This document shows positions 28,246 to 48,900 of a stretch of DNA of 63,359 bases, in pieces. The stretch covers positions 1 through 63,359 of the forward strand of contig JAOZTH010000001.1 in NCBI GenBank assembly GCA_029939245.1, read 5' to 3'. The notes under the pieces are model-generated. The model was not told the DNA's origin. It ran no database searches and worked only from the letters and a program-made list of their open reading frames with translations. Each line of letters begins with the position of its first letter. The stretch's first letter is position 1. This DNA is from Arcobacteraceae bacterium (GTDB lineage Bacteria; Campylobacterota; Campylobacteria; Campylobacterales; Arcobacteraceae). The position numbers and the translations under genes were made by a program.

Positions 28246-28968
28246 ATGAAAAAGTTATTTAGATTGTTGTTGGCGGTGTCGGTGTTGTTTTTGTTTGCAG
28301 GGACGACTGCTATGGCAAAAAAGAAGTCCTATACAAAGGCACAGGTGCTAAAAAAGTGTAAAAAATATAAAACAAAAAAGAGTATCAAAAAATATAAAAA
28401 ATGTCTAAAAAAATACAAGATAAAAAAGAAAAAAAGATCAACAAGATCAACAAGATCAAAGGAAAAAGAAACAACCACTACATATTATGTCAAAAAAGGA
28501 TTTTATGCTGGAGGCAATCTAGCATATGTGATGCCTGGAGACTATATCGTAAACGACAACAAATTGGGCTTTGATAGTTCTGTAGGATTTGCTGCTTTGG
28601 GCGGATATAAGTTTGGTAAGATAAGGGCAGAGGCAGAATATTTCACACACTCAAGCTCTTTAACCGACATAGATGCTACATTTTCATTTAGCTCAATACT
28701 TATGAGTGGATATTATAGGTTAAATACAAAAAATTTCTCTCCTATATTTGGAGCTGGGCTAGGTAGCACTACTATATCAGACGAGAATAGTTTCACTACT
28801 ACATCTTTTCATATCACTGGTGGAGTTGAGAGTATGATAAGTCAAAAGCTATCTTGGACTGCGTTGCTACGATATATGAAATACGGCGATATAGAGTTTG
28901 ATGATGGTGGCACTGGTAGCTTTGATCCTACTTTTGCCTTGATGGGTGGAGTGAAATATAGCTTTTAA
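28246..28968 (+). CDS. Outer-membrane beta-barrel protein with a Lys-rich N-terminal extension
   Basis: 240 aa. It has a signal peptide, about 60 aa of KKxK-rich sequence, then alternating-hydrophobic beta strands ending …GGVKYSF (terminal Phe). Confidence 0.65.
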   Translation: MKKLFRLLLAVSVLFLFAGTTAMAKKKSYTKAQVLKKCKKYKTKKSIKKYKKCLKKYKIKKKKRSTRSTRSKEKETTTTYYVKKGFYAGGNLAYVMPGDYIVNDNKLGFDSSVGFAALGGYKFGKIRAEAEYFTHSSSLTDIDATFSFSSILMSGYYRLNTKNFSPIFGAGLGSTTISDENSFTTTSFHITGGVESMISQKLSWTALLRYMKYGDIEFDDGGTGSFDPTFALMGGVKYSF

Positions 28969-29708: not shown

Positions 29709-32700
29709 ATGAAAAATATTTTTAGATTAAAATCCATATGGTTGGCAATACTTTTGTTACTATTTTTATCTGGTTGTGAGATAGGCAATATCAAAACAGC
29801 TACCACTATAGAAGGGCGAGTAGCCAAAGGGGCGGTATCAGGTGCTGTGGTGACGGCATACAAGGCTGGCACAACAGAGAAAATAGGCACTGCTACTACA
29901 GATGTCAATGGATATTATGAGCTATATAGCGATCTATTTTATGATGGAGTAGTATATATAGAATCTGTTGGTGGGACATATACAGATGAGCTTACCAATA
30001 CACCAAACAAAGATGCCGGTCTGTTTAGCTTGACAGCATTGTCAAAAGTAGGAACAAATGATGGATATGTTGTAAACATCACACCATATTCTACCATATC
30101 ACACAAAAAAATGCTAAATGATGGAGAAGATATAACATCTGGAGCTGTTGTGACAAAATACAACAAAGCTATATCAGATATATTTGTAGGCAATAGCTTT
30201 GATATCACTAAAACTACACCAAACTTACACAATGATCCTACAGATGATAGTTTAGATTCTGCAGATGCAGAAGAATACGGCTTTATGTTGAAAGCATTTG
30301 TAGATATGACAGCTTCAAATGAAGCAAATGTAGATGCCAAGATAGATTCCATAGCAGGAGCTATCACTAGTGTAGAAAACATGACTATCACAGATGCTAT
30401 GGCAGATGAGATCATAGCATCGTTTGCAAAACCTGCAGTTCAGACAGAGATGACATCTGGTGAGATAGCGGATATAAACAAAACTATCAACGATGCGAGA
30501 GACATAAAGCTACCAGATATCAGCGGTTCTTTAGCTACGATAACTGGAGAGTATAACACTACTATAGCAACATGGACACCAGTATTGGCTGCTACAGGTG
30601 GGATATTGGATAGATGTGAGATATCTCCCGATATTACTGCAAGCTATGGTCTTGAGTTTAACACTACAACATGTGTAATATCTGGCAAACCTAATAAGCA
30701 AGGTGCAGATACATTTGCTATAACTCCAGTTAATTTCAAAGGAAAAGGAAAATTCTTTCGGTTGAGCTTGGATATAAATGCTTCGGACCAAGCGGCATTT
30801 TCACTTGATGGACCTGTGGTATTTGAAGAAAATGCCACAAACTATATCCAGACAACAGTAGGTGGAAGCTGTGGAGTTGGTGGAACATACAAGTTTGAGT
30901 TAAACGATACTGCAGTAGCTAGCATAGTGGTAGCTACTGGCGAGATAGATTTCAAAGCACCTGGCTCTATAGAGGTCAAGGCGACTCTGAGCTGTGCCCA
31001 ATACAATGATATCAACGCTACTAAAACAATAACAGTCCATGAAGTAGCTCCAAATATAACCAACAGTATAGTAAATATAAGAGGTAAGCTACGAGAAAAT
31101 ATAAGTTGGGAAGTAAATAACACTGGAGGCAGTATAGCTAGTTGTGCTATAACTCCTAGTGTTGGGACATATGGACTTGATTTTAATCTAACCACATGTG
31201 AGATATCTGGTATCCCAACATCTACAGAACTAAGAGCAGCAGGTGCCAATATACAGATAACTGCTACAGGATCTGCAGGTGGCAATAGTGTCAAGACGAT
31301 AAACCTAAAGATAGACAAAGCAACACAAAAACCACCTGTAAGTATAGGTCCAAACCAACCATGCACCACTGGAGAAAGATTTCGGCTAGTTGCCACAGGT
31401 GGCAACAGCACAGTAGTAGGATATGGCTATGTCTCAAGTCATCCACTCATAGCAGCAGTAGATGCTAGTGGTTGGGTAGATTGTCTCACAAATGGTGAAG
31501 CAAATATCACTGCTACAAGGACAGGCGATGTAAATCATATTGACAGCGAGGACAACTATACAGTAAGTGTAGGTCTAGTTCCGCCAAATATCAACAACCC
31601 TCAAACTACTACGGGTATATATGGACAAACAATCAACTGGGAAGTCAACAACACAGGTGGACTTATAGAAAGCTGTGTGATAAGCCCATCTGACTTAACC
31701 ACAAAATATGGTCTAGTATTTAGCCAGACTGATTGTAATATCACAGGTGTACCCACAGCAACAACTGTCGGTGATGTGTCATTTACTATAAAAGCGGTCA
31801 CAGCTACTAGAGGCAACAGCACCAAAAATATACATATAATCATAGACAAGGAAGAGCAAAATCCATATGGATTTGATACAAATCTCACTTTGACGGTAGG
31901 ACAAATAAGTCCAAAACAACTTGACCATATAGGTAATACAACTGTCGCATCAACATATACTAGTGAAGATGAAACTATAGCGATAGTCAATATAAACTCA
32001 GGAGCTATCACCAACACATTGAAAGCTGGCAATGTAACTATAGTCGCTAGAAATGTAGGCGACACAAACTTCAAGTCAATAGATGCAAACTATACATTGA
32101 CAGTCTTGGCAACAGACCCAAATATCACAAGTCCTTTTGATATAGCTACTGACTACAACAAAACAATCAGCACAAACTGGGTGCCAAACAGCTCTACAGG
32201 TGGAGCTATAGAAACCTGTGAGATATTGCCGTTATTTGCAGCAAACAGTGGTATGGAATTTAACACTACTACATGTGAGATAAGCGGAACTCCACTATAT
32301 GTAGACGAAGGTGGAACTCCATATACAATCACAGCGAAAAATAAAGCCGGAGCAGGTAGCGATACAGCGGTGGTAAATATAACTATAGCCAAAGCAACAC
32401 AAGCTGAACTCATCATACCTATAGCACATGTCACAGATACTTTAGCAGATGGTTGGCACAAACAAAATATCACAGGTGGCACTGGCACTGGCAATATCAC
32501 ATTTACAGGCACGATACCAAGTGTAATAGATGTCAACAGAACCACAGGAAATGTCACATATAGTGCCACTATTGCAAACACAGAGATCACAGTCTTGAAA
32601 GCTAGTGATAATTTCTACAAAGAGATATCAAAGAAATATAGGTTAACCGTAGGAGATTTCAAGCCAGAGATTGGTGCATCTGTAGCTACGATAGTAGCAT

Positions 32701-34136
32701 TGTATGGCGAAGCTAACTCAACCATGTGGCAAGCCAAAAACGATGGAGGCGACACAACTGTGCCATATACATCTCTAGATACACTTCCTGGTGGCTTGAC
32801 TATAAGTGCTAGTGGTGTGATAGGTGGCATACCTACAGCAGTGCAGGGTGTTAGCTCATATACTATAGTGGCGAAAAATGATTCTGGCAATGATACCTTT
32901 GATGTGCAAATTATAGTAAACAAAGGAAGTCAAAATCTATTTAGATTTACAGATGGCGACAGACAAGGCAACAAAGGCACAGGCTATACATATGAAGTCA
33001 ACAATACCCAATCAGACGGAGCATTGACATATAGTTCAAGCGATATTAGCAAGGCAGAAGTGACAGATGTGGGAGTAGTGACTATAAAATCAGATGCAAC
33101 TCCTGGCAATGTAACTATAATCGCTCACAATGTTGGCAATACAAACTTCGACAAAGCAGATACAAACTACACTTTACAAGTAGTGGATGTAGCACCAGAT
33201 ATCACAGGAGCTTTAGCTCCGTTGGTAGCAAGTTTCAATGAAGTCGTGAGCTATGAGCTCAATAATACAGGAGGCACCGTGACTGCTTGTGCTGTTTCTA
33301 GTGGAACTTTGCCAGCTACATTGACTATAGCCCCTACGGCAGATGGTAGCACATGTGTGATCACTGGCACAGTGTCAGAGGTAAAAGGATTGTTTAACTA
33401 TACATTCCAAGCACAAAATAGTGCAGGAGACGCTAGCACAAAAGAGCTAGAGATCACTACTATAAAAGCAGATCAAACTGGCTTTACAATATATGGTGAC
33501 CAAGAGATTGCCAAAACTATAACAGACTTTAGACAAGCAGCAACAGGCGGTAATACAACCGTGCCTATAATATACACTTCTAGCAACGACACTATAGCAC
33601 AAGTAGATGCGACCGGTTTGATAATACCTCACATAGCAGGAGACGTCAATATAACTGGCACAAGACCAGGTGGTGCAAGCCCAGCTACCGCAAACTACAA
33701 CGATATAAACGATAGTTATCAGTTAACCATATTGGATACTGTATTTCCTATCGTTGACTATATATTATCTACACCGGGAAACACTACAACAGATGCAAAT
33801 GCTACAGGAAACATAACTATAGTTTGGAGCGAACCAGTCAGAAAAGTAGATGGCAAAAATATTGAGATACGAAGCAAAGGTGCGACAGGACATACAAAAG
33901 GTTTCAGCACTACTTTGCTCACTATAAATGGCGAGACAAATGTGACTTTATCTATGGGGACTGGACATCTGAGTTATGGCGAGGAGTATTATGTCGTCAT
34001 AGAGGCAGGTGGCTTTGAAGATATGGCAGGCAATGACAATGTGGCACATGGAGGAGATGGGACGTGGAATTTCACTGTGCCAACACAGACTGGCGATTGT
34101 GCCTATGATTGTATAGACAATTGTGATAATTATTAA
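29709..34136 (+). CDS. Giant surface lipoprotein 1. Order: CarboxypepD_reg-like N-module, about 6 x (He_PIG-like + Big_2-like) Ig domains, Big_5/SbsA-like domain, Cys-rich tail.
   Basis: 1475 aa with lipobox LLFLSGC, then IEGRVAKGAVSGAVVTAYKAG…TDVNGYYEL. The recurring modules are …W(E/D)VNNTGG.I.SC.I.P…GL.FN.TTC.ISG.P… and …(S/T)S.D.TIA.V…G.V…G.V.ITA…. It ends GDCAYDCIDNCDNY. Confidence 0.85.
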   Translation: MKNIFRLKSIWLAILLLLFLSGCEIGNIKTATTIEGRVAKGAVSGAVVTAYKAGTTEKIGTATTDVNGYYELYSDLFYDGVVYIESVGGTYTDELTNTPNKDAGLFSLTALSKVGTNDGYVVNITPYSTISHKKMLNDGEDITSGAVVTKYNKAISDIFVGNSFDITKTTPNLHNDPTDDSLDSADAEEYGFMLKAFVDMTASNEANVDAKIDSIAGAITSVENMTITDAMADEIIASFAKPAVQTEMTSGEIADINKTINDARDIKLPDISGSLATITGEYNTTIATWTPVLAATGGILDRCEISPDITASYGLEFNTTTCVISGKPNKQGADTFAITPVNFKGKGKFFRLSLDINASDQAAFSLDGPVVFEENATNYIQTTVGGSCGVGGTYKFELNDTAVASIVVATGEIDFKAPGSIEVKATLSCAQYNDINATKTITVHEVAPNITNSIVNIRGKLRENISWEVNNTGGSIASCAITPSVGTYGLDFNLTTCEISGIPTSTELRAAGANIQITATGSAGGNSVKTINLKIDKATQKPPVSIGPNQPCTTGERFRLVATGGNSTVVGYGYVSSHPLIAAVDASGWVDCLTNGEANITATRTGDVNHIDSEDNYTVSVGLVPPNINNPQTTTGIYGQTINWEVNNTGGLIESCVISPSDLTTKYGLVFSQTDCNITGVPTATTVGDVSFTIKAVTATRGNSTKNIHIIIDKEEQNPYGFDTNLTLTVGQISPKQLDHIGNTTVASTYTSEDETIAIVNINSGAITNTLKAGNVTIVARNVGDTNFKSIDANYTLTVLATDPNITSPFDIATDYNKTISTNWVPNSSTGGAIETCEILPLFAANSGMEFNTTTCEISGTPLYVDEGGTPYTITAKNKAGAGSDTAVVNITIAKATQAELIIPIAHVTDTLADGWHKQNITGGTGTGNITFTGTIPSVIDVNRTTGNVTYSATIANTEITVLKASDNFYKEISKKYRLTVGDFKPEIGASVATIVALYGEANSTMWQAKNDGGDTTVPYTSLDTLPGGLTISASGVIGGIPTAVQGVSSYTIVAKNDSGNDTFDVQIIVNKGSQNLFRFTDGDRQGNKGTGYTYEVNNTQSDGALTYSSSDISKAEVTDVGVVTIKSDATPGNVTIIAHNVGNTNFDKADTNYTLQVVDVAPDITGALAPLVASFNEVVSYELNNTGGTVTACAVSSGTLPATLTIAPTADGSTCVITGTVSEVKGLFNYTFQAQNSAGDASTKELEITTIKADQTGFTIYGDQEIAKTITDFRQAATGGNTTVPIIYTSSNDTIAQVDATGLIIPHIAGDVNITGTRPGGASPATANYNDINDSYQLTILDTVFPIVDYILSTPGNTTTDANATGNITIVWSEPVRKVDGKNIEIRSKGATGHTKGFSTTLLTINGETNVTLSMGTGHLSYGEEYYVVIEAGGFEDMAGNDNVAHGGDGTWNFTVPTQTGDCAYDCIDNCDNY

Positions 34137-34146
34137 GGAGAAAAAG

Positions 34147-37100
34147 ATGAAAAAGATAATAAAAAATTTTATACTTGTAGCACCAATGCTATTGGTATTG
34201 TTTACTGGTTGCGGAGAAAAAGGAACCGAAGGAGCTATAACTACTGGCATGGTTATAGAAGGACGAGTAGCAAAAGGCTCTATAGATGGTGCGACAGTAG
34301 AAGCATATAGGACAGATACTGAAGAGTCTATAGGTTCTAGCACTACAGATAGTCAAGGATACTACAAGATAAATACTTCATTGAATTATACCGGAGTAGT
34401 TAGATTGACATCAAATGGTGGTAGCTTTTTGGATGAACAAACAGGAAACAAACTTGATGCTAGTGCTTTTGAGCTTCAAGCGGCATCATACACTCCTGGT
34501 GAAAGTCTCAAGACCATCAATATTACGCCATTTTCCACTGTATCGTATAAAAAACTACTAGCAGATGGCAGAGACAAAACTTCACAAGAAGTTATTACTA
34601 AATACAACAAAGCCATAGCAGAGATATTTGTAGGAAATAAAGATATAGAGATAACAGATTTAAATCCAAACATTTCAAATGACTCAAGCGACAACCACTT
34701 AACTAGTGAAGACCAAAAAAATTATGGTGCGGTGTTGGCTATATTTTCAAATATGATACTAAATGTCCCAGGTTTGGCAACTACAGAGATAGACAATATG
34801 GTAGATAAAATATCAAATATAGAGTATGCGACTATAGACAGGGAATTAGCCACACATATACAGCAATATGTAGCTGGAGTCAATACTACAAATGAAGATA
34901 TAAACAGTAGCAGAGATGATGTCAATGCCAGTATAGAAAAAGCAGTATTCTCTCTAGTGCCAGATATAAGTCGTTCGGAAGTAAATCTTGACTACAATAT
35001 AGACGAAAATAGCACAAAAATATCGTGGATACCTACTACAAAAGAAGAAAATATCACAAGATGTGTCTTGAGCCCTAGTGGTGTAGTTATAGCAGACTAC
35101 AACCTAAGTTTCAACCCTATCACATGTGAAATATCTGGCGAACCAAATGCTACTCATAGTGGTGCCGATATAATCATAGTGCCATCAAATCCTAGAGGCG
35201 ATGGCACACCATTTCGTCTAAATTTCAAGATAGATAGGATAGTTCAAGTTCCGATCGTATTTGACCCTGACAATAAAACTGATTTTAATATCACAGATGC
35301 TAACTTTGATTTTGATATAACAGGCGGAACTTGTGCTCATGTATCTACTACGAGATTTACTTCTAGCGATACAACAATAGCAGAAGTAAATGCCACTACA
35401 GGAGAAGTCAATGTGACTGCAACTGGCACATTTACTCTCACCGCTACAAAAACTTGCAGCGAGGATTATCTAGCAGAAGAGGTATCAAAAGATATGACAG
35501 TGCTACAGATAATACCAAACATAACTACAAGTATGGATATAAATGCAACTCTATCTCAAGTGATGGCTTGGAATGTGAATAATACAGGTGGTTCTATAGA
35601 TAGTTGTGTTATAGATACAAATATAAAAGCGCTTTATAACCTTGATTTCAATCAAACAACATGTGCTATAACAGGAGAGCCAAATGCTACAAATATACCA
35701 GGTGGCATAGATGTCACTATCACTGCTACAAATACACGAAGCATAAGTGCTGAAGTTATCCATCTGCTTATAAACAATGCACCAAATATAAACAATCCAC
35801 AAATCACCACAGGTATATACAATCAACCTGTGGTATGGGATGTGAACAATACAGGCACAAGCACAGGAGCTATAACAAGCTGTGAGATAACGCCAAATAC
35901 ATTAAAAGCAGACTACGATCTCGACTTTAGTCAAACAACATGTCAAATCACAGGTGAAGCAAACAGGACAACTGCAGGCGACAACAGCTACACTATCACA
36001 GCTAAGAACTCATCTGGCAATAGCACTAAAAATATCAATATAGTTATAGACAGATCGCCACAAGACCCGATACTATTTGACCCAGATACAAAAGATGAGT
36101 TCAATCTAACCGATGCGGATTTTGACTTTGATATAACTGGCGGAAACTGTAGTCATGTAGAAACAGTTGTATTTGGTTCAAGCAACACAACTATAGCAGA
36201 TGTCAATATTACTACAGGAGTAGTAGATATAAAAAATATCGGCGACTTTAATCTAACAGCGACAAAAACTTGTAGTGAAAACTATCTACCTACTTCTGTA
36301 TCGAAACCTATGGTTGTCCACAATGTCATACCAGATATAACCAACGACAACAATATCACTACAGAATACAATGCCACTATAGTTGCATGGACTCCATCAA
36401 ATACAGGTGGAGTTATAACTGGATGTAGATTAGACCAAGATATACACAATATGTATGGTCTAGACTTCAACAACACTACATGTGCTATATCAGGCGAGTC
36501 AAATGCAACAATACCAGGCGGTATTAATGTGGGAGTTATAGCTAGCAATGCTATAAACGATAGCAACAGAATTGTGTTGAACTTGATTATAAATAAAGCT
36601 ATTCAAAATCCTATAGTAAATATGACAAACAGCAATGCCAACTGCTTCAAAGGAACATCACCAACAATACACAAAGATGCTACAGGCGGGAGTAGTTTGT
36701 TTGATTATAACTATACATCCAACGATTTAACCACAGCTACAGTTGACCCTGTTACTGGTATAGTCAGCTGTGTAGAGTTTGGCGAGGCAAATATCACTGC
36801 TACAAAAGCTGAAGATGACAATTGGCTTGCAAGTAGCCACTATTATACTATAGTTGTATCAAACAATACTCCAAATATAGACAATCCACAAAATACCACA
36901 GGAGTATACAATGAACCAGTTGTGTGGGATGTCAACAACAGCGGTGCCGATGTAGGACCGATAGAAAGCTGTGAAATATCTCCTAACACTTTGAAAGCTA
37001 CATACAATCTAGACTTTAATCAATCAACATGTCAGATCACTGGTGTACCAAATGCCTCAACTGCAGGAGATAGCACATGGACTATAAAAGCTATGAATAC

Positions 37101-39432
37101 CACAGGAAATAGCACAAAAAATATAAATATAGTTATAGAAAAAACACTTCAAAATCCATTTGGTTTTGACAACAACCTAACAGTACACAAATATGGTATC
37201 GGCTCAAATGCACTTGACCATATAGGCAACGGCACAGGAGCTATAGAATTCAAAAGTTTGGATGAGGATTTTGCGGTAGTTGATATTAACTCAGGAAATA
37301 TAACCCAAGCAAAAGCTATAGGAGCAGTGCTGATACAAGCTATCAAAAAAACCAGCACAAACTTCAAAGAGATCAATGCTACATATACTTTGACTATCAT
37401 AGATGCTGACCCAAATATAACTACACCAAACAATATATCTATAGAATACAACGAAACATTTAGCTGGATGCCAGACAAGATAAACAGCGGAGAGATAGAT
37501 GACTGTGCCATACTGCCTGTATTTGCAGCAAACAGTGGACTAGAGATAAACAACACGACATGTGAGATATCTGGTGCTCCGCTTTTTGTAAATGAAAGTG
37601 GGACAGAACATACTATAACCGCTACAAACAAAGCAGGAGTTGGTGTAGATACTACGATAGTAGATATAGTCGTAGCAAAAGCAGAACAACAAGCACTTAT
37701 AATACCACAGTCATTTATCGGCGATATTATGAGTGATATAGGACACCAGCAAGTCATCACTGGAGGAAGTGGCGATGGAAATATCACATTTAGCAGTGCG
37801 GCATCGCCTACATTTATAGACCTAAACACAACTTCAGGAAATGTAACATACAGAAGCCCATTTGACAACAACAAAACTATCATCATCACAAAAGCTGGAA
37901 ATAACTTCTATGAGCCAAAGCAAGCTAGCTACAAGTTTGTAGTAGGTGATTTTATACCAAACCTATCTGGCTCCACAGCGGCAACAAGTGGAAAATTTGA
38001 TGAACTAAATACAAGTATTTGGCAACCAATAAATACAGGTGGTGATCCTTCTTATGATTACACTACAAATCCAGCTTTACCTGCTGGCTTGACTATACAT
38101 GCAACTACAGGTGTCATAGGCGGTACACCGCAAAGTGCACAAAACTCTACACCATACGAGGTAAATGCTACAAATGCATCTGGCACATCTTTGTTTACGG
38201 TTAACATAACTATAAATAAAATTCCTCAACCAAACTTTAGATTTAATGACGGCAACAGAACCAGCGAATTAGGAACTAGCTTTGAATACAATGTTACAAA
38301 TATAGATGTACCTACTGGCACTCTCACATATACCACAAGCGACCCTACATATGCATTGGTCACAAATACTGGAGAAGTCACTATAAATGACAACGATGTC
38401 AGAGGCAATGTAACTATAACTGCGAGAAATCAAGGTGATGGAAACTACAGTGATACATTAACAACATATATTATAGAAGTTGTTCAAAAAAGACCTGATA
38501 TAGCAAATCCTATGGTCATAGAAGAGCTAAATGCAACATATATGCAGACAATCCCAACCTTTGAGTTTAACAACACAGGCGGGCCAGCTACTAGCTGTAT
38601 AGCAGTCGGTGATAGTTTGCCTGATGGCTTGGAAGTAAATGCTACAGCTGGTGGTAACTGTGTTATCACGGGTACACCAACTGAAGCAAAAGCAGATCAA
38701 ATATATACTATACGAGCTATAGGTGAGTTTAACAACGAGAGCACCAAAGAGATACACGTATTTGTAGACAAGGCACATCAAACTGAGTTTGACATAGTAG
38801 ATGTAGACAAATACCTTGAGTCTACTGTGTTGGATTTCAACAGAACTGGATATGACGGAAATACATCTTTGAATATACAATATACATCAAGCAATACAAC
38901 TATAGCACTAGTAGGAGCGATCACTGGCGTGATAACACCAAAAACAACTGGCAATGTGACTATAACTGCAGTAAAACCAGGAAATGCTAGCTTCTATGAT
39001 GCAAATGCTAGTTATAGGTTGATTGTGGAAGATACTCTAAGACCAGTGGTTGATTATACAATATCCACTCCAACAGATGATGAAGTAGATGTAAACGGCA
39101 CGGCAAACTTGGTCATAGTATGGAATGATAATGTATCTATAAATGATGGCAGAACTATACGAATAAGAAGCGATGGCGATACCAACCTCACAATAACATA
39201 CAGCACAACAGATTTGGTCATGGTAGATGATAGAAATATGACATTGAATTTGGGTAGCTCACACTTAAGTTATGGAGAGGAACATTATGTCTATATAGAA
39301 TCCAACTCTGTTGTTGACAGCGGTGGAAATGTAAACGAAGCAGTAGATGACCAAACTAGCTGGAACTTTACTGTGCCATCTAACAGTGGTCCTTGTGAGT
39401 TAGATTGTGTGGATAATTGTGACAATTATTAG
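34147..39432 (+). CDS. Giant surface lipoprotein 2 (paralog of 29709..34136, with more Ig modules)
   Basis: About 1761 aa from ATG 34147 (RBS AAGGAGA at 34135-34141), with lipobox LVLFTGC. It has the same N-module, the same alternating Ig modules and a Big_5-like domain. It ends GPCELDCVDNCDNY. Confidence 0.85.
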   Translation: MKKIIKNFILVAPMLLVLFTGCGEKGTEGAITTGMVIEGRVAKGSIDGATVEAYRTDTEESIGSSTTDSQGYYKINTSLNYTGVVRLTSNGGSFLDEQTGNKLDASAFELQAASYTPGESLKTINITPFSTVSYKKLLADGRDKTSQEVITKYNKAIAEIFVGNKDIEITDLNPNISNDSSDNHLTSEDQKNYGAVLAIFSNMILNVPGLATTEIDNMVDKISNIEYATIDRELATHIQQYVAGVNTTNEDINSSRDDVNASIEKAVFSLVPDISRSEVNLDYNIDENSTKISWIPTTKEENITRCVLSPSGVVIADYNLSFNPITCEISGEPNATHSGADIIIVPSNPRGDGTPFRLNFKIDRIVQVPIVFDPDNKTDFNITDANFDFDITGGTCAHVSTTRFTSSDTTIAEVNATTGEVNVTATGTFTLTATKTCSEDYLAEEVSKDMTVLQIIPNITTSMDINATLSQVMAWNVNNTGGSIDSCVIDTNIKALYNLDFNQTTCAITGEPNATNIPGGIDVTITATNTRSISAEVIHLLINNAPNINNPQITTGIYNQPVVWDVNNTGTSTGAITSCEITPNTLKADYDLDFSQTTCQITGEANRTTAGDNSYTITAKNSSGNSTKNINIVIDRSPQDPILFDPDTKDEFNLTDADFDFDITGGNCSHVETVVFGSSNTTIADVNITTGVVDIKNIGDFNLTATKTCSENYLPTSVSKPMVVHNVIPDITNDNNITTEYNATIVAWTPSNTGGVITGCRLDQDIHNMYGLDFNNTTCAISGESNATIPGGINVGVIASNAINDSNRIVLNLIINKAIQNPIVNMTNSNANCFKGTSPTIHKDATGGSSLFDYNYTSNDLTTATVDPVTGIVSCVEFGEANITATKAEDDNWLASSHYYTIVVSNNTPNIDNPQNTTGVYNEPVVWDVNNSGADVGPIESCEISPNTLKATYNLDFNQSTCQITGVPNASTAGDSTWTIKAMNTTGNSTKNINIVIEKTLQNPFGFDNNLTVHKYGIGSNALDHIGNGTGAIEFKSLDEDFAVVDINSGNITQAKAIGAVLIQAIKKTSTNFKEINATYTLTIIDADPNITTPNNISIEYNETFSWMPDKINSGEIDDCAILPVFAANSGLEINNTTCEISGAPLFVNESGTEHTITATNKAGVGVDTTIVDIVVAKAEQQALIIPQSFIGDIMSDIGHQQVITGGSGDGNITFSSAASPTFIDLNTTSGNVTYRSPFDNNKTIIITKAGNNFYEPKQASYKFVVGDFIPNLSGSTAATSGKFDELNTSIWQPINTGGDPSYDYTTNPALPAGLTIHATTGVIGGTPQSAQNSTPYEVNATNASGTSLFTVNITINKIPQPNFRFNDGNRTSELGTSFEYNVTNIDVPTGTLTYTTSDPTYALVTNTGEVTINDNDVRGNVTITARNQGDGNYSDTLTTYIIEVVQKRPDIANPMVIEELNATYMQTIPTFEFNNTGGPATSCIAVGDSLPDGLEVNATAGGNCVITGTPTEAKADQIYTIRAIGEFNNESTKEIHVFVDKAHQTEFDIVDVDKYLESTVLDFNRTGYDGNTSLNIQYTSSNTTIALVGAITGVITPKTTGNVTITAVKPGNASFYDANASYRLIVEDTLRPVVDYTISTPTDDEVDVNGTANLVIVWNDNVSINDGRTIRIRSDGDTNLTITYSTTDLVMVDDRNMTLNLGSSHLSYGEEHYVYIESNSVVDSGGNVNEAVDDQTSWNFTVPSNSGPCELDCVDNCDNY

Positions 39433-39464
39433 CTAGATTATAGTAGTCATAAAACAAACAGCAT

Positions 39465-39492
39465 AAACCCCAAAATAAATTTGGGGTTTATT
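39465..39492 (+). terminator. Rho-independent-type terminator after the giant lipoprotein genes
   Basis: Perfect 10-bp stem AAACCCCAAA/TTTGGGGTTT with a 5-nt loop, followed by ATT. Confidence 0.6.
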
Positions 39493-39527
39493 GGCACAGA
39501 ACAGTGAGTTTAACTCAAAAGGAAAAT

Positions 39528-41229: not shown

Positions 41230-41605
41230 AAATAAAAATTATCTACTCATAGCTTTTGTAGTTGGCTTTGTGTTGCTGTTTGTAACAACAAACAAATATG
41301 AAACTAAAAAAGATGAAGCTATAGCAAGATACACCAAGATGCAAAAAATACTTTCTGATATTGAACAAAATAAAGATAAGTTTACATATGAAAAAACCAA
41401 GGCTATCTTAAACTCTTCTATATTTAAGCAATATATTCAAACACGAACAAAAGACAACTTGACTACTATAGTATTTAATGCTCCTTTGAAAGTGGCAAAT
41501 GCTTTCATACGAAAAATCGCAAATTCGGATTCGTTGCTTGGTGAAATAGAGATACAACAGATTGACAAAAGAGTCAAAATCATAATCAGGATAAAAAATG
41601 GATAA
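41219..41605 (+). CDS. gspM: GspM-like small bitopic protein
   Basis: 128 aa with an N-terminal TM and a C-terminal alpha/beta region (…TTIVFNAPLKVANAFIRKI…VKIIIRIK). Its position after the GspL-like gene supports the call. Confidence 0.4.
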   Translation: MTNKNKNYLLIAFVVGFVLLFVTTNKYETKKDEAIARYTKMQKILSDIEQNKDKFTYEKTKAILNSSIFKQYIQTRTKDNLTTIVFNAPLKVANAFIRKIANSDSLLGEIEIQQIDKRVKIIIRIKNG

Positions 41606-42182
41606 TATAAAAGCTATTTTGTCGCTGGTTGCAAGCAGGATAAAAGGACTGGAAAGTCTACAAATAGGCTCTGGAGTTAAGCTGTTGATATACAGCTTTT
41701 TGACTCTGTTTTTTATAGTTTTTTTATCTCCCAAAAAACAGCTATATTTTTATCTTGAGGAAAAACTACAGACAAATAATATCATAATATACCAAGAAAA
41801 GATAGAATCGCTAAACACAGGAATATGGCTAAAAGATGGGCTAGTCTCTTATGATAAAATATTTATAGGATTGTTTAGCGATATCACTATAAATACATAC
41901 TACTTCAAAACAAATCTTATAGTCCATAGCTTTTTGATAGACAAAGATTTTGAAACCTTTGTGCCATCGCAAGTAGAGAAAATAGAGTTGTCTCATAGTT
42001 TTTTGAGTCCGTTAAATGTGCTTATAGAAGCAAAAGGAGAGTTTGGAGAGCTGACTGGAAGTTATGATTTTATAAGCAGCAAACTCACATTAAATCTAAA
42101 ACCAAGCGATATAATGAAGACAAAAAAAGCATCCCTAAAGCTTATGACAAAAACAAAAGATGGATATATATATGAGAAATAG
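41598..42182 (+). CDS. GspN-like bitopic protein (tentative)
   Basis: 194 aa with one TM (LLIYSFLTLFFIVFLS). Assigned mainly from position between the M-like and C-like genes. Confidence 0.3.
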   Translation: MDNIKAILSLVASRIKGLESLQIGSGVKLLIYSFLTLFFIVFLSPKKQLYFYLEEKLQTNNIIIYQEKIESLNTGIWLKDGLVSYDKIFIGLFSDITINTYYFKTNLIVHSFLIDKDFETFVPSQVEKIELSHSFLSPLNVLIEAKGEFGELTGSYDFISSKLTLNLKPSDIMKTKKASLKLMTKTKDGYIYEK

Positions 42183-42951
42183 AGGTTTGTTGGCAAATAG
42201 CATGTTGATTGTAGCTTTGATATATCTTGTTATGTCTATTCTCAAGATATTTTTACCTATATCATCTGTAGAACTACAAAAAGATATTGATTTTAATTTT
42301 GCATTTAACTACTCTTTACAAAATATCTATAAAGATAAAATAAAGAAAAAAGATAGTCAAAACAGATCTAGTATGAGTTTTGAGCTCATAGGAATATATA
42401 GTGATGGAAACAATAGTGTAGTCATCATAAGCAAAGACAAAAGAACGGAAGTCATAGCTGTAGGTGAAGTGTTTGAAGGCTTTAAGCTAACTGGCACTAC
42501 AAGTATATTGGCAATATGGGACAAAAATGGTATAAGACATGAGCTATCTATAGAAGACACTAGAGACAGAGAGATAAGGAATTCTTATAAAATAGAAAAT
42601 GAAGATCCTCTAGCAACTAGAGATATAAAATACACAGATATACAGTATTATAAAAATAATCCACAGAAACTATGGGATGAAATAAATATAAATAAAACAA
42701 AAAATGGCTATATGATTACTAAGATAAAGAAAAATTCCAAACTTTCTACATTGGGATTGAAAAATGGTGATATCATAAAAGTAGTAAATGGCAAAGAGCT
42801 TATAAATGATAGTGATGCTATAAAACTCTACAAAGATATAAAGAGTGCAGAGTTTGTCACTATCACAGTGCTAAGAGATGATAAATATATAGATATAGAT
42901 TTTAATATAAAAGGAACACAAACGATGACACAGCCACCAAAATTACAATAA
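42160..42951 (+). CDS. gspC: GspC-like protein (TM + HR-like domain + PDZ)
   Basis: 263 aa. An N-terminal TM is followed by FELIGIYSDGNNSVVIISKDKRTEVIAVGEVFEGFKLTG (HR-like) and a PDZ-like region, GYMITKIKKNSKLSTLGLKNGDIIKVVNGKEL. Confidence 0.6.
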   Translation: MDIYMRNRGLLANSMLIVALIYLVMSILKIFLPISSVELQKDIDFNFAFNYSLQNIYKDKIKKKDSQNRSSMSFELIGIYSDGNNSVVIISKDKRTEVIAVGEVFEGFKLTGTTSILAIWDKNGIRHELSIEDTRDREIRNSYKIENEDPLATRDIKYTDIQYYKNNPQKLWDEININKTKNGYMITKIKKNSKLSTLGLKNGDIIKVVNGKELINDSDAIKLYKDIKSAEFVTITVLRDDKYIDIDFNIKGTQTMTQPPKLQ

Positions 42952-43056: not shown

Positions 43057-45255
43057 ATGAACAAGATACTTAAAATTTTGATAACGCTTATGTTGATGAG
43101 TGTATCTTTGTCTAGTAGAGACACAGTAGATATAAACTTCAAGGGTCTAAACATAAGAGATTTTGTAAAAATGGTAGCAAAAATCAAAAATGAAAATATC
43201 CTAATAGGCAACAAACTAAGCGGTAGTATAAACTTTATATCGGTCAAGCCAATACCAAAAAAATCACTCATGGTGTTGCTCAACCATGTATTGGAAACCA
43301 AAGGCTTCACGCTGATTCGTACTGGACATAGATATCTAAAAGTTGTCAAGATTGAAGATGCAGGCAGGTCTGGACTGCCTGTAAATACTACACAAGATAC
43401 TTTTCAAATAGTTACAGAGATTATTGAAGTAGATGGTATGAATGTGGATTTGCTTGTGACTAAACTAAGACACCTAGTAACCAAAAACTCAAAAATAACT
43501 ACTTCAAAAGAGACAAATGCATTGATAGTCACGGATTATCCAGAGAAAATCAAAAGTATAAAAAAGATTATAAACCTACTAGCTAGCAAAAGTCAGCTTA
43601 AAACAAAAGTGATAAGACTAGAACATATAAAAGCAGATGTGATAGGTCCAGATATACAGAAGATCACGAAAAATTTATTTGACCCAAAAATAGCCAAAAA
43701 CAACTTAGATATCATCATCAACAACAAGACAAATACTATAACTCTTGTAGGACGGCAAACACAGATAGACAAAGTAGCCGAGCTTATACACAATGCCGAC
43801 AATCAAGATGACAAATCATCTATAGTCATGGAAGTAATACCTATCAACAATAGTAGTGCCGAAGAGATGATAAAAATTTTGGAAAAATTTTATGCTACAA
43901 AAGGCAAAAATGTAGTATATCAGCCTAGCTTTATGAATGACAAAGAGCTCAACTCCGTCATAGTTCGTGCTAGAAAAAGAGATATAGATGATATACGAGA
44001 TGTTATCTCAAAGCTAGATATACCAAAACCACAAGTGTTTGTAAAGGCAAGGATAATAGAGATATCCGATGAAAAAGCTAGTGATATAGGATTTAAATAT
44101 GGTTTGAGTGGTGGCAAGGTAACTAGCGATGGACTCATGACCATGAGTGCAAATATGGGCGGACAAGCTATTGCGGTAGATAGTACGCTTATGAGTTATA
44201 TAGATATAGATACAAACTTGAAAGATTTTTTTGCACTTGGAGCTACATTGTCGTTGTTGCAAAGAGATGGAGCAGCTGAAGTGCTAAGCGAACCGTCACT
44301 GCTTTGTCTAAATAACAAAGAGTCAGAGATATATGTAGGAAATACCCAATCAGTCGTAACCTCTACAGCACAAGGCACTACTAGCACATCTGATACTACA
44401 AACAGCTACAAAAGAGAAGATATAGGACTAACCCTCAAGATAAAGCCACGACTCTCAAGCGACAATAAAGTCACACTTGAAGTAGAGACTATCATAGAAG
44501 ATGTGCTAGGATCAGACAGCAACGGACAGCCCATAACCACCAAAAGAACAGTCAAAACTACTGCCATAGTAAATGATGCAGAACTAGTCATGCTAGGTGG
44601 TCTAAACAAGACAAAAGAGACCACAAGTGTATCAAAAGTTCCTTTGTTGGGTGATATACCACTACTTGGAGCATTGTTTAGAAGCACAAATAAAACCATG
44701 TCAAAAACATCTTTAGCTATCATGCTAACTCCGTATATTATAGACGAAAACAGAAACATAAGTAAACTAAGAAATGATTTGAATATGTTAGCATTAGCTC
44801 AAGATGACTACACCACTAAAGCTATGGCTATACTTGACAATGGAGATGTGCGAGAAGTTAGACTAGAAAATAGAAAAGCCAAAAATACAAAAAATACAAA
44901 TACAAAACCAAAAAACTTCATAAAACGAACAAGCCCGCAAGCACAGCAAAGGTATTACAATAACCAAAAAACCTACAAAAAGAAAAAAATCAAGACAAAA
45001 AAAACTCAAAAAAAATCATATGGAGGCAAATATAATATATATGTAGGTAAGTATTTTAGCTTTAGTGAGATTAAAGAGATAAGAAATGATAAGACAATAA
45101 ATACAAACACAGATATGAAACTAAACTATGATGGTAAAAATGTATTTGAAGTTAGTGTTGGTCCATATAGGACTATGAAAAAAACTAAAAAAGTATTGAA
45201 GTATATCAAAAAGAAATACAACGATGATGCCTATATAGAAGATAAAACAAAATAG
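43057..45255 (+). CDS. gspD: Secretin (GspD family) with a Lys-rich linker and a C-terminal SPOR-like domain
   Basis: 732 aa. It has a signal peptide, N0 (DINFKGLNIRDFVKMVA…), N1-N3 repeats and a secretin core (VFVKARIIEISDEKASDIGF… VPLLGDIPLLGALFRS). The tail carries YNIYVGKYFSFSEIKEI…FEVSVGPYRTMKKTKKVLKYIKKKYNDDAYI. Confidence 0.9.
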   Translation: MNKILKILITLMLMSVSLSSRDTVDINFKGLNIRDFVKMVAKIKNENILIGNKLSGSINFISVKPIPKKSLMVLLNHVLETKGFTLIRTGHRYLKVVKIEDAGRSGLPVNTTQDTFQIVTEIIEVDGMNVDLLVTKLRHLVTKNSKITTSKETNALIVTDYPEKIKSIKKIINLLASKSQLKTKVIRLEHIKADVIGPDIQKITKNLFDPKIAKNNLDIIINNKTNTITLVGRQTQIDKVAELIHNADNQDDKSSIVMEVIPINNSSAEEMIKILEKFYATKGKNVVYQPSFMNDKELNSVIVRARKRDIDDIRDVISKLDIPKPQVFVKARIIEISDEKASDIGFKYGLSGGKVTSDGLMTMSANMGGQAIAVDSTLMSYIDIDTNLKDFFALGATLSLLQRDGAAEVLSEPSLLCLNNKESEIYVGNTQSVVTSTAQGTTSTSDTTNSYKREDIGLTLKIKPRLSSDNKVTLEVETIIEDVLGSDSNGQPITTKRTVKTTAIVNDAELVMLGGLNKTKETTSVSKVPLLGDIPLLGALFRSTNKTMSKTSLAIMLTPYIIDENRNISKLRNDLNMLALAQDDYTTKAMAILDNGDVREVRLENRKAKNTKNTNTKPKNFIKRTSPQAQQRYYNNQKTYKKKKIKTKKTQKKSYGGKYNIYVGKYFSFSEIKEIRNDKTINTNTDMKLNYDGKNVFEVSVGPYRTMKKTKKVLKYIKKKYNDDAYIEDKTK

Positions 45256-46479
45256 ATGACATACAAATATACGGGTGTTGACAAGCAGTTCAAAAAAGTT
45301 TCTGCCACGATAGAAGCAAACAGTCTAAATGAAGCCAAAAAAACTCTAAAACAAAGTGGAATAATATTTAACTCTATAAAAGTTCAACAACAAAACAGCC
45401 TTGAGTTTATGTCTGTTCTTTGGACAAAAGAGCTAAGCAAAAAAGAGCTATCTACACTCAGTAGAGATCTGAGTTTTTATATCAAATCTGGCATCAATAT
45501 ATCAAGTGCCTTGAAGCTAGCAATATCACAATATAGCGATTCTAAAAAGATTAAAAATTTTTTAAGTGAAGTAAGCAGATATATAGATGAAGGCAAGGAT
45601 TTTGCTACATCGCTAAGTATTCAAAAACAGATAAAGCTTCCTCAGTTTTATGTGCAAAGTATCAAAGCATCACAAAACGGCGGTATGCTAGATAGTGTGT
45701 TGATGGAGTTGTCTACATTTATATCAAATCAAGACAAAATACAAAAGAAAATATCAAATGCCCTAGCATATCCTATGTTTATAGTCATAAGTGCTATACT
45801 TATGGTAGCATTTATGCTAAGCTACGTAGTGCCAAAGGTCGTAGGTATATTTGAACAAAACAAACAAGAGCTACCACTCATCACCAAATACGTGCTAGCT
45901 TCTAGTGATTTTGTAGGTGACTACTATGTGATAATATTGGTGCTAGTGGTTTCTGCTGTATTTACGGTAAAATATCTAAACAAAATATCAGCACATTTTC
46001 GTTATTCTTATGATGGTATAATCCTAAAGTTACCACTCTTTGGTCCTATCATACTTATAAGCGAGTTATCACGTTTTAGCTATATGTGTTCGTTGCTTTT
46101 ACGCTCTGGTATGACTCTAGTAGAGACAGTCAAACTCTCTTCGCAACTTTTAGACAATGTAGTCCTAGCCCGGATATTTGACGATAGTTCTACTTTTGTA
46201 GTCCAAGGTGGCAAACTCTCCTCTTCGTTGATGAACAAAAATATAGATGTGCTTCCTAAAAGTTTCATCCAATCTATTGCTTTGGGCGAAGAGACTAGTA
46301 TGCTGGAAACTGTGCTTTCTACTCAAGCAGTGCGGTTTGACGAAGACAACAGCGACAAGATAACTTTCATGCTCTCGCTTTTGGAACCTATCATGATGCT
46401 CGTAGTTGGCACTATCATCGCTATAATCGTCCTAGCTATGATGTTGCCTATCTTTTCTATAAATATAGGAGGAATGTAG
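45256..46479 (+). CDS. gspF: Type II secretion / type IV pilus platform protein GspF/PilC family
   Basis: 407 aa with the duplicated T2SSF domain architecture and 3 TMs. The ATG directly abuts the secretin stop. Confidence 0.9.
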   Translation: MTYKYTGVDKQFKKVSATIEANSLNEAKKTLKQSGIIFNSIKVQQQNSLEFMSVLWTKELSKKELSTLSRDLSFYIKSGINISSALKLAISQYSDSKKIKNFLSEVSRYIDEGKDFATSLSIQKQIKLPQFYVQSIKASQNGGMLDSVLMELSTFISNQDKIQKKISNALAYPMFIVISAILMVAFMLSYVVPKVVGIFEQNKQELPLITKYVLASSDFVGDYYVIILVLVVSAVFTVKYLNKISAHFRYSYDGIILKLPLFGPIILISELSRFSYMCSLLLRSGMTLVETVKLSSQLLDNVVLARIFDDSSTFVVQGGKLSSSLMNKNIDVLPKSFIQSIALGEETSMLETVLSTQAVRFDEDNSDKITFMLSLLEPIMMLVVGTIIAIIVLAMMLPIFSINIGGM

Positions 46480-46868: not shown

Positions 46869-47389
46869 CTATACATAAGATATCTACATTTACAATCATG
46901 GAGCTTATCGTCTCGGTTATGATCATAGGTATGATATTTGTGTTTTCGTTTCAAGTGTTTAACTATACCAAAACAAACCAAAACAATATAAATAGATCTA
47001 TCAAAAAAAACTCTACAGACAGTATGAAGATAAAGCTAATATATATGGATATGGTCAACACAAAGAAAAAGTTGGAGATAGACAATAAGTTTAATCAAGA
47101 TTTGGATATAATATATCTACAGACAACAAACTCTATGTATAAGCGGGATTATAGCTTTGTAGTCTATAAAGTAGTAGATGCAAAGTTATATAGAGTTGAA
47201 TCAAGCAACAAACTAAGAGACGATAAGTTTGGTATGAAAAAGGATATTGATATGTTATTTGATAAAGTGGAGATATTTAAGGTGTATGAAAACACAACAA
47301 AACAAAACAAAACACAAGTATCAAAAAGTAAGCTGGTGTTTTTAAAAACAGAGACAAATACTATAAGATTTGAGGTAGCAGGTATATGA
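46865..47389 (+). CDS. Pseudopilin-like protein (non-canonical leader)
   Basis: 174 aa. MTIHKIST/FTIMELIVSVMIIGMIF has Glu at +5 but Thr at -1. Confidence 0.55.
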   Translation: MTIHKISTFTIMELIVSVMIIGMIFVFSFQVFNYTKTNQNNINRSIKKNSTDSMKIKLIYMDMVNTKKKLEIDNKFNQDLDIIYLQTTNSMYKRDYSFVVYKVVDAKLYRVESSNKLRDDKFGMKKDIDMLFDKVEIFKVYENTTKQNKTQVSKSKLVFLKTETNTIRFEVAGI

Positions 47390-48900
47390 TAAAAATATCA
47401 CAACTAAACAACATGGACTTCGAACCTGTATGGATAGATAATATAGATATGGCTATAGCCATAAAGTATTTTGCTCTGTTTAGTAAAAAAAATGATGATA
47501 CAATCATAGTGCTGACACCAATTCATATAAAGGAAGCTTTGGAGTTTTTATCAAAAGTAGAACTAAACTATGAGATATATCTAACAGATGAGATAAGTTT
47601 CGAAAGACTGCTTAACAAGTTTCTGGAAATCCGCACAGAAAAATCTATGGCAAAAGAAGAAAATGCCGAGTTGTCTATAGATACAGACGAAGAGGAGCTG
47701 GAGCTAAAAGAGTTTTTACAAACAAACCAAGACCTGTTAAACAGCGAAGATGCGGCTCCTGTCATAAAGCTGGTAAACTCTATATTTTATCAAGCTATCA
47801 AAAAAGATGCCAGTGATATACATATAGAAGTGCACGAAAAAAAGGGCGAAATACGGTTTCGTATAGATGGGGCATTGAACAAATATATGGATCTAGACAA
47901 AAAAATAACTCAACTAGCCATAAGTCGTATCAAGGTAATATCTAGTCTGGATATATCTGAAAAAAGAGTGCCACAAGATGGTAGAACACAAGTGACTATC
48001 GCTAGCAAAAAGCTAGACATAAGAGTCTCTATATTGCCTACATATTATGGCGAGAGAGTGGTCATGCGGATACTCATGGAAAGTAGCGATATACCGTCTA
48101 TGGAGCAGCTGGGATTTAAAAAAGATTTGATGGACAAGGTTTATCCACTTTTGGAGCACTCACATGGTATGATACTAGTAACTGGTCCTACAGGAAGTGG
48201 AAAGTCCACGACTTTGCACTCATTTTTACAGCAAGTAACCTCGCCAAACTTAAATATCATCACCGTAGAAGACCCAGTAGAATACAATGCAGAAAATATC
48301 AACCAAGTCCAGACAAATGCCAAAGTAGATCTCACATTTGCATCGGCTCTTCGGTCGATATTAAGACAAGACCCCGATGTAGTGATGATAGGCGAGATGC
48401 GAGACAAAGAGACAGCACATATAGGAGTGCAAGCCGCTCTAACTGGGCATCTTGTGTTTTCCACTTTGCATACAAACACATCTACAGGAGCTATCACTAG
48501 GCTAGTAGATATGGGAGTGGAAGAGTTTTTGATATCTAGCTCGCTTCTAGGAGTGCTAAGTCAAAGACTAGTTAGAAAGCTATGTGTGCATTGTAAATCT
48601 ATAGACCTTGATGGTGACTTTTATAAAACAAAGTTAAACATAGATACAAAAATACAAACATACAAAGCCGTAGGGTGCAACCAATGCCACTTTACAGGAT
48701 ATAGTGGCAGAGTGGCTATAGGGGAGCTGTTTGTAGTAGATGAAGAGGTCAAAAAATTTATCAAAAAAGATCAAGAGGAGAGTGAATTGCGAAATTTTAT
48801 GAGAAAAAAAGGTATGACAACCATACAAGATAGGCTTGCAGACCTTATAGTAGACGGCACGACATCGTTTACCGAAGCACTGAGGATAGGGATACACTAG
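47386..48900 (+). CDS. gspE: Type II secretion ATPase GspE family
   Basis: 504 aa. It has an N-terminal T2SSE_N-like domain, Walker A GPTGSGKST, Asp/His boxes, and the tetracysteine motif CVHC…CNQC typical of GspE. Confidence 0.9.
   Translation: MIKISQLNNMDFEPVWIDNIDMAIAIKYFALFSKKNDDTIIVLTPIHIKEALEFLSKVELNYEIYLTDEISFERLLNKFLEIRTEKSMAKEENAELSIDTDEEELELKEFLQTNQDLLNSEDAAPVIKLVNSIFYQAIKKDASDIHIEVHEKKGEIRFRIDGALNKYMDLDKKITQLAISRIKVISSLDISEKRVPQDGRTQVTIASKKLDIRVSILPTYYGERVVMRILMESSDIPSMEQLGFKKDLMDKVYPLLEHSHGMILVTGPTGSGKSTTLHSFLQQVTSPNLNIITVEDPVEYNAENINQVQTNAKVDLTFASALRSILRQDPDVVMIGEMRDKETAHIGVQAALTGHLVFSTLHTNTSTGAITRLVDMGVEEFLISSSLLGVLSQRLVRKLCVHCKSIDLDGDFYKTKLNIDTKIQTYKAVGCNQCHFTGYSGRVAIGELFVVDEEVKKFIKKDQEESELRNFMRKKGMTTIQDRLADLIVDGTTSFTEALRIGIH

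Follow-up and report, generated by a model that had tools for sequence, protein, structure and literature searches.

A three-cysteine motif attached to Big_5 domains in giant lipoproteins of uncultured Arcobacteraceae: a possible cross-linking or metal-binding knot rather than a general C-terminal tag

We analysed a 63,359-nucleotide stretch from an uncultured Arcobacteraceae bacterium (assembly GCA_029939245.1, contig JAOZTH010000001.1, positions 1 to 63,359; hereafter, the window), in which two adjacent genes on the forward strand encode giant lipoproteins ending in a similar short, cysteine-rich tail. Lipoprotein 1 (29709..34136, + strand) has 1475 aa and lipoprotein 2 (34147..39432, + strand) has 1761 aa. 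Their lipoboxes, LFLSGC and LFTGC, were judged by sequence inspection, without a predictor: under the pattern [LVI][ASTVI][GAS]C, we accepted L-S-G-C (residue 23) in lipoprotein 1 and F-T-G-C (residue 22) in lipoprotein 2. A preliminary description, made from the DNA alone, had called both tail carriers giant lipoproteins, and the lipoboxes bear this out. Both signal peptides are of the Sec/lipobox type, without a twin-arginine motif. The ATG of gene 2 (34147) sits 10 nt past the stop codon of gene 1, behind a GGAG Shine-Dalgarno sequence; a GTG at 34123 was considered as the start of gene 2 and rejected.

Lipoprotein 1 is composed of an N-terminal CarboxypepD_reg-like sandwich, He_PIG and Big_2 repeats (both found by Pfam in both proteins), and a terminal Big_5 domain followed by the three-cysteine (Cys3) tail; the architecture of lipoprotein 2 is the same. 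When the last ~130 residues were scanned alone, Pfam detected the terminal Big_5 domain (PF13205) at 33768..34076 (+) in lipoprotein 1 (E 1.5e-10, 42.1 bits) and at 39064..39372 (+) in lipoprotein 2 (E 1.5e-6, 29.3 bits), both above the gathering threshold of 23.6 bits. In both proteins the last matched residues are W-N-F-T and the first tail Cys comes 7 residues later, so the tail does follow the last Ig-like (Big_5-type) domain, as first described.

The tail of lipoprotein 1 (34092..34136, +) reads GDCAYDCIDNCDNY, with 14 residues at 34092-34133 and a TAA stop at 34134-34136, while the tail of lipoprotein 2 (39388..39432, +) reads GPCELDCVDNCDNY, with 14 residues at 39388-39429 and a TAG stop at 39430-39432; each tail holds one copy of the motif. 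Translated at greater length, 33900-34145 ends in TQTGDCAYDCIDNCDNY before the stop (this C-terminus was also read as WNFTVPTQTGDCAYDCIDNCDNY), and 39196-39441 ends in SNSGPCELDCVDNCDNY (also read as WNFTVPSNSGPCELDCVDNCDNY). A degenerate DNA pattern back-translated from C-x2-D-C-x-D-N-C-D-N-Y-stop has two matches in the window, exactly at the two tails, as compared with 0.00 occurrences across 100 dinucleotide-preserving shuffles of the window. Thus, translation and pattern scan both confirm the shared Cys-rich tail at the positions first reported for the two giant proteins.

To see how far the tail extends beyond this organism, we scanned one genome per species, 185,579 species in total, with the pattern C-x3-C-x-[DN][DN]-C-D-N-Y-stop. 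Only four matches were returned. Two of them lie on one contig of the Arcobacteraceae metagenome-assembled genome (MAG) GMC3_bin_14; the other two, from Patescibacteria and Thermoplasmata, fall outside any open reading frame (ORF) and are chance matches. The GMC3_bin_14 contig is distinct from the window, with 81-86% DNA identity over the alignable parts, and has the same gene order. Its orthologues of lipoproteins 1 and 2 share 60% and 78% protein identity with those of the window, and their tails read GDCAYDCVDNCDNY and GPCKLDCVDNCDNY, each followed by a stop. A third genome is represented by a 1.1-kb metagenome contig from JGI, on which gene 1 ends in GPCGLDCVDNCDNY before its stop and is followed by the start of a gene 2-like lipoprotein, so that over this 1.1 kb the gene order is that of the window. 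There is also a near-identical strain of the window's organism, GCA_029940435.1. The preliminary description had staked its case on orthologues from other genomes keeping the motif, and they do so in the second species and in the third, metagenomic genome.

Other searches added few members. In metagenome contigs (JGI), the pattern C-x-D-N-C-D-N-Y-stop gave 7 matches, all by chance (TGG in place of the stop, or ORFs of 10-20 codons), and a position-independent core motif had 0 matches in viral contigs. A full-length protein search found no further family members, the next matches sharing only He_PIG repeats and having unrelated C-termini. A word-index protein search with the 131-aa C-terminus returned only a 73-aa fragment and missed the query's own protein, being unreliable for short queries against long proteins. 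Finally, a HMMER search with a profile of the last 62 residues against 1.84 billion representative proteins returned 1597 Big_5-containing proteins; among the best 150 of these 1597, these cysteines were found only in known family members and in one new protein, P0091. Across the 278 proteins that we collected, W-x-F-x-[VILT], with which a Big_5 domain usually ends, is matched ~1195 times, and cysteines follow only nine of these matches. The motif-bearing domain is a bona fide Big_5, and the Cys3 appendage is lineage-specific among the Big_5 proteins inspected.

P0091 is encoded on a different contig of the GMC3 MAG, and the complete ORF is that of a third giant lipoprotein. Its lipobox is VATGC (A-T-G-C at residue 22, accepted on the same pattern), its N-terminal sandwich module is the same, with a G-S-V-G-K-G box instead of E-G-R-V-A-K-G, and cadherin repeats replace most of the He_PIG repeats. 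In the GMC3 MAG, the gene is broken by a run of N, an assembly gap within the cadherin repeats (L012, ~9900-10000), which is why database gene calls split it and P0091 covers only the C-terminal 1181 aa. The orthologue in the window's species (P0160/P0279) has 1859 aa and 80% identity, and the locus is syntenic in both species, with no type II secretion system (T2SS) genes within the 6-10 kb inspected.

There are two copies of the motif in the third lipoprotein, an internal one (GPCQITCIDNCHVVD) and one at its end (CVDNCENPH-stop). The internal copies in P0091 and P0160, WNFDLPVSAGPCQMTCVDNCDITDSEEV and GPCQITCIDNCHVVDIDKV, come after an internal Big_5 domain and are followed by He_PIG and a second Big_5; read further, as GPCQMTCVDNCDIT and GPCQITCIDNCHVV, they run on into a linker and the He_PIG domain. 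Such continuation indicates that the unit is attached to a domain and does not depend on a terminus. The terminal copies in the two species read GDCNIDCVDNCDNPH and GNCQNDCVDNCENPH before the stop. Overall, we have nine copies: five C-terminal ones ending in -DNY, two C-terminal ones ending in -NPH, and two internal ones between Big_5 and He_PIG. The copies share the unit G-x-C-x3-C-[VI]-D-N-C, set at a constant distance (W+11) after the W-x-F strand of Big_5. What follows the third Cys is variable, namely D, E or H and then -NY-stop, -NPH-stop or a linker. Hence, the DNCDNY terminus, which the preliminary description took to be invariant, is so in the two paralogue families of the tandem locus and gives way in the wider family. 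In terminal copies the protein stops 3-4 residues beyond the last Cys, as C-D-N-Y-stop or C-[DE]-N-P-H-stop.

We consider the lineage restriction to be well supported for the exact tail and provisional for the core motif, because both large DNA scans required a final -DNY-stop, leaving internal and -NPH variants outside the pattern, and because only the best 150 of the 1597 HMMER matches were examined, so that single-domain carriers scoring below ~95 bits fall outside them. Within this scope, the motif family is tiny and young, being confined to three paralogous lipoproteins in 2-3 closely related uncultured Arcobacteraceae. Literature searches on these accessions and on T2SS lipoproteins of Arcobacteraceae turned up nothing relevant.

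The tail bears the marks of selection. The paralogous lipoproteins 1 and 2 are 44% identical overall and 49% identical over the last 135 aa, while their tails are identical at 10 of 14 residues; the C-terminal domains have therefore diverged while the tail was kept, just as had been proposed. When the two paralogues from the two species are aligned, only 5 of 1777 nine-residue windows match the conservation of the last nine residues, and DNCDNY is among the longest invariant runs. Across all nine modules, 13 of ~135 columns are invariant and 6 of these (G, C, C, D, N, C) lie within the motif, whereas the Ig domain itself drops to 32-34% identity. The tails of the paralogues, and also those of the tail 2 orthologues, vary at synonymous sites where residues are fixed, so that the identity reflects purifying selection at the level of the peptide. 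Because the paralogue tails differ at synonymous sites and in four residues, we reject a recent gene conversion as the source of the shared tail. Overlap with gene 2 is likewise ruled out as the cause of conservation at the protein level, since no gene overlaps tail 2.

At the nucleotide level, the two tails behave differently. In the tail 1 orthologues (34092-34136 and L002 7860-7904), the same codon encodes each of the shared residues (13 of 13), the rare GGC, GCC and GAC among them, as against 58% codon identity over gene 1 as a whole. The tail 2 orthologues show no such excess (10 of 13, against 70% gene-wide). This suggests an added nucleotide-level constraint just upstream of the Shine-Dalgarno sequence and ATG of gene 2 (34137-34149), and overlap with gene 2 may explain the extra identity of tail 1.

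The tail is thus real and under selection, and no curated sorting signal resembles it. The known C-terminal sorting signals, those with Cys among them, are tripartite, consisting of a motif, a transmembrane (TM) helix and an Arg cluster (10.1101/2023.06.07.544157). Some of them hold an invariant Cys, and GlyGly-CTERM and MYXO-CTERM are tied to T2SS-dependent surface display (10.1101/2023.06.07.544157; PMC11980579; PMC12889589). The Cys3 tail resembles such signals (LPXTG, PEP-, GlyGly-, MYXO-, JDVT-, Synerg- and CGP-CTERM) in being a short C-terminal motif on large surface proteins. It differs from them in having neither a TM segment nor an Arg/Lys cluster and in occurring once as an internal copy; the tails are net acidic and contain no hydrophobic stretch. 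No sorting-signal family of NCBIfam matched the full proteins at E<=0.01 or the last 23-62 residues at E<=10, and Pfam gave no match to the tail either, even at E<=10. We therefore reject membership among the tripartite signals, and the initial impression that the tail fits no known C-terminal sorting tag holds. Among the ORFs between 17036 and 56747, a Pfam scan found no sortase, exosortase, rhombosortase or CPBP-type myxosortase. The C-terminal domain of the type IX secretion system, a folded beta-sandwich of ~80-100 aa, is also excluded, there being no match of the Por_Secre_tail type in Pfam or NCBIfam and the last domain being Big_5.

The genes downstream of the lipoproteins raise another possibility, which is recognition by a secretion machine. 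Pfam identifies a GspD-type secretin with N0, three Secretin_N and Secretin domains (43057..45255, +; Secretin 148.8, Secretin_N 86.9 and N0 55.7 bits), a GspF-type platform protein (45256..46479, +; T2SSF 147.1 bits) and a GspE-type ATPase (47386..48900, +; T2SSE 451.5 bits). A GspD with N0/N1-N3 domains, a GspE and a GspF, the set by which we recognise a T2SS, is therefore present. At 42160..42951 (+) lies a GspC-like protein with a C-terminal PDZ domain (PDZ_2, 28.0 bits against a cutoff of 27), for which GspC models stay below their cutoffs (63.5 bits against 150; TIGR01713, 50.6 against 101.6). The T2SS-like machine of the preliminary description thus stands as regards the secretin, GspF and GspE, while its GspC is a sub-threshold assignment. 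Six ORFs of the operon (39504-42182 and 46479-47389) have no significant family match. Two of these, at 46479 and 46865, have N-termini that look prepilin-like by eye (FLLIEA and FTIMEL; N_methyl E=5.8), and the remaining four each have one TM segment, N-terminal or central, like GspL/M/N. The window showed no recognisable candidate for the major pseudopilin GspG. The 299-aa ORF at 39504 was considered as an M6 protease and rejected (16 bits against a cutoff of 110). Between the lipoprotein genes and the first ORF of this operon, 31 nt past the stop of lipoprotein 2, there is a perfect hairpin with a 12-bp stem (39463-39491; ATAAACCCCAAA-ataaa-TTTGGGGTTTAT), which may be a terminator or attenuator between two transcription units.

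Keeping in mind this neighbourhood, one might suppose that the terminal Big_5 domain and its Cys tail are read by the machine, for instance through binding of the GspC-like PDZ domain to the tail or to the free carboxyl group of its -DNY end, and that the element thereby marks the lipoproteins for translocation across the outer membrane. The genes lie directly upstream of gspC(PDZ)-D-F-E, with synteny conserved in two species, and lipoproteins can be T2SS cargo (PMC12802150). There is a precedent as well: EpsC's PDZ domain is needed for secretion of VesB, whose signal lies in a C-terminal Ig-fold, and an Fn3 loop of PelI binds the PDZ domain of OutC (PMC12369372). The likeness is that the cargo has an Ig-type domain at its C-terminus and a gene next to those of a T2SS with a PDZ-bearing GspC. 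The difference is that the VesB and PelI determinants are Ig-fold structures, not a Cys-rich linear tail, and that the Cys3 motif also occurs outside the T2SS locus, on a lipoprotein whose gene is separated from any T2SS gene by 6-10 kb or more, where it is internal in one copy and ends in -NPH in the other. The tail departs from a canonical C-terminal PDZ ligand, whose last residue is conserved and usually hydrophobic, since here the last residue is Y in two families and H in the third and 2 of 9 copies are internal; neither a free carboxyl terminus nor a terminal Tyr is conserved, which weakens the reading as a PDZ ligand or linear secretion tag. Furthermore, the GMC3_bin_14 MAG has no further stop-anchored copies, so the motif is not a tag shared by a broad secretome, and the strong hairpin described above separates the lipoprotein genes from the T2SS genes. 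The earlier proposal of a secretion or retention signal for the adjacent machine thus keeps its support from gene position and loses ground on the off-operon lipoprotein, the internal copy and the -NPH ending. Overall, we regard recognition by the T2SS as quite unlikely. Were it true, the motif would be a rare linear element by which to approach the long-standing question of how the T2SS recognises its cargo.

A count of the cysteines, which we find the most telling piece of evidence, points in another direction. Lipoprotein 1 has 18 Cys, made up of the lipobox Cys, 7 intradomain pairs and the 3 of the tail; lipoprotein 2 has 24, made up of the lipobox Cys, 10 pairs and the 3 of the tail. In both proteins and both species (P0002-P0005), each Cys besides those of the lipobox and tail is paired with another in its domain, and the pairs are conserved. 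Only 9 Cys are present in P0160, namely the lipobox Cys, one pair and two 3-Cys motifs. In addition, the motifs occur in twos per locus, either as two adjacent genes with one each or as one gene with two, and this count covers every genome in which the full locus was recovered. With an odd number of Cys in the element and all others paired, a single motif cannot satisfy its thiols alone, which favours a cross-link; the internal copy, too, gives the motif the look of a knot for cross-linking or metal binding, and less that of a C-terminal secretion tag.

Such evidence induces us to speculate on the following scenario. The lipoproteins would be exported by the Sec/lipobox route into an oxidising extracytoplasmic compartment, where two motifs might join by disulfides (3+3 Cys) or share a thiolate-bound metal. 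In the tandem gene pair, tail 1 could pair with tail 2; in the cadherin lipoprotein, the partners could be its two copies, internal and terminal. With lower likelihood, a tail could pair with another Cys-bearing partner, such as an extension of the neighbouring outer-membrane protein (OMP) described below. Such joining would staple the distal Big_5 ends of very long surface proteins. We tentatively prefer this account, in which the tail is one copy of a lineage-specific 3-Cys motif acting as a pairwise extracytoplasmic cross-link knot, while judging its chances to be somewhat short of even. As for other chemistry, the thioester attachment suggested early on finds no support, there being no Gln partner and no TED-like domain, and no enzyme or partner residue for radical-SAM thioether or thioester formation was seen nearby. 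An Fe-S cluster is considered unlikely, since a Sec/lipobox signal without twin-arginine argues against a cofactor loaded in the cytoplasm.

Several points weigh against the pairing of motifs. The parity of motif number rests on two locus types in 2-3 closely related genomes, and it could merely reflect duplication history. AlphaFold2 (AF2), run on the 9-sequence module, models the Ig beta-sandwich core with a pLDDT of 70-82 and leaves the tail unstructured (pLDDT <50), predicting no helix there; on a 350-aa segment with two motifs the mean pLDDT is 45, and the model is unusable. Taken together, these predicted models neither support nor contradict pairing. Surface location and export through the T2SS are also things that we infer. 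Moreover, a self-contained metal or Ca site would be an equally good fit for the invariant D-N and the flanking D, E or H.

That last point leads to a different account, in which each motif by itself chelates an ion (Zn, Cu, Cd or Ca) picked up once the protein has been exported. The ligands would be three thiolates, the invariant Asp/Asn and flanking Asp/Glu/His, and the end of the Big_5 domain would thereby be rigidified or functionalised. The D-N between Cys2 and Cys3 is indeed invariant, D, E or H follows Cys3 (with -NPH in the third protein), and low AF2 confidence is to be expected for a ligand-dependent fold. A sequence search of the PDB with the tail returned only the Cys segment of ferredoxin I, a weak and non-significant resemblance (E=1); a Foldseek search against the PDB returned generic Ig folds only, at E>=0.016. 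Against such a site, conservation does not extend to the fourth ligand, the scanned neighbourhood showed no metal-handling genes, and the Fe-S version is disfavoured by the Sec/lipobox signal, which is not of the Tat type. Cysteines in exported Gram-negative proteins are, as a rule, oxidised. We consider a self-contained metal or Ca knot unlikely, if worth keeping in view.

The motif might also be a passive structural cap, in which an intramotif disulfide loop (e.g., C-[VI]-D-N-C) shields the last Big_5 strand from fraying or proteolysis, and the shared tail would reflect common descent of the module, without any role in interaction. It is true that the motif always accompanies the same Big_5 subtype, with which it was evidently duplicated, and that the family is tiny and young. 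However, a cap leaves one conserved Cys unexplained, among the ~1195 W-x-F-x-[VILT] matches none outside the lineage needs such protection, and the motif is more conserved than the domain that it would protect. A mere cap therefore seems distinctly improbable to us.

Returning to the cross-linking knot that we prefer, its closest functional analogy is found in cnidarian minicollagens, whose terminal C-x3-C-x3-C... domains form intermolecular disulfide links by exchange (PMC4863159). In both cases, short terminal C-x3-C-x3-C... elements sit on elongated extracellular proteins. The minicollagen domains are eukaryotic, have six Cys (CX3CX3CX3CX3CC) and form three internal disulfides before reshuffling, and there is no sequence homology; with three Cys per copy, the motif does not belong to this type of Cys-rich domain. 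Another comparison concerns the helix-pinning disulfides of the twin CX3C type in small Tim proteins and of plant alpha-hairpinins (PMC11591084). There, a Cys pair at i and i+4 is matched by an equally spaced set on a second segment. These elements are helix-borne, whereas the Cys3 tail is rich in Asp, Asn and Gly and AF2 predicts no helix in it.

Both types of lipoprotein locus have a small OMP upstream. In the window, it is a beta-barrel protein at 28246..28968 (+; orthologue at L002 1990-2730), with a Lys-rich N-terminal extension of ~55 aa that contains two Cys (KKCKKYKTKKSIKKYKKC; stretch KKKSYTKAQVLKKCKKYKTKKSIKKYKKCLKKYKIK). The second species has exactly this stretch (100% identity), although the barrel has diverged. 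Immediately ahead of the third lipoprotein gene there is another small OMP beta-barrel gene, which overlaps its start (L012 6728-7705, L014 5034-6011) and whose product has a basic N-terminal extension with four conserved Cys. Thus, an OMP and a giant Cys3-lipoprotein form a recurring pair. The strong positive charge and the cysteines of the extension at 28246-28968 complement the acidic Cys3 tails, and it is tempting to suppose, speculatively, that this OMP is a candidate partner of the tails.

One may go further and imagine a six-Cys disulfide or metal knot that staples the T2SS-delivered tandem lipoproteins to each other, or the tails to the two-Cys extension of the OMP, as a covalent adhesin complex. 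We hold this combination to be very unlikely; if true, it would be a principle of surface anchoring and assembly not described for Gram-negative bacteria. In a variant of the same adhesin idea, the knot would also be read by the PDZ domain of GspC, in which case it would be the first linear, transplantable T2SS cargo determinant.

Overall, the motif is not a general C-terminal tag; we read it as a probable Cys-rich knot, based on cross-links or metal, that is attached to an Ig-like domain. The idea that would have been most exciting, that of a new sorting signal at the C-terminus, receives a negative answer. If the pairing knot is true, it would show covalent coupling of the far ends of surface lipoproteins of 1,500-1,900 residues in a bacterium, and it would provide a compact tag (~12 residues) for engineering disulfide or metal coupling of exported proteins. 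Its general importance is limited by the very narrow lineage, known only from uncultured Arcobacteraceae MAGs.

Finally, we would also like to mention two other features of the window. Directly upstream of the OMP and the lipoproteins, positions 25684-28195 encode a 156-aa secreted protein and an overlapping 684-aa multi-TM protein, the latter with two blocks of TM helices in a layout that looks RND/MMPL-like by eye; neither has a Pfam match even at E<=10, and their synteny is kept in the second species. Further downstream, a perfect 12-nt tandem repeat (ACAACAAACAAA x 4.3) at 53801-53852 lies at the 3' end of the ORF 52939-53868, which encodes a Gate-domain membrane protein, and adds a short repeated peptide to the C-terminus of that protein.

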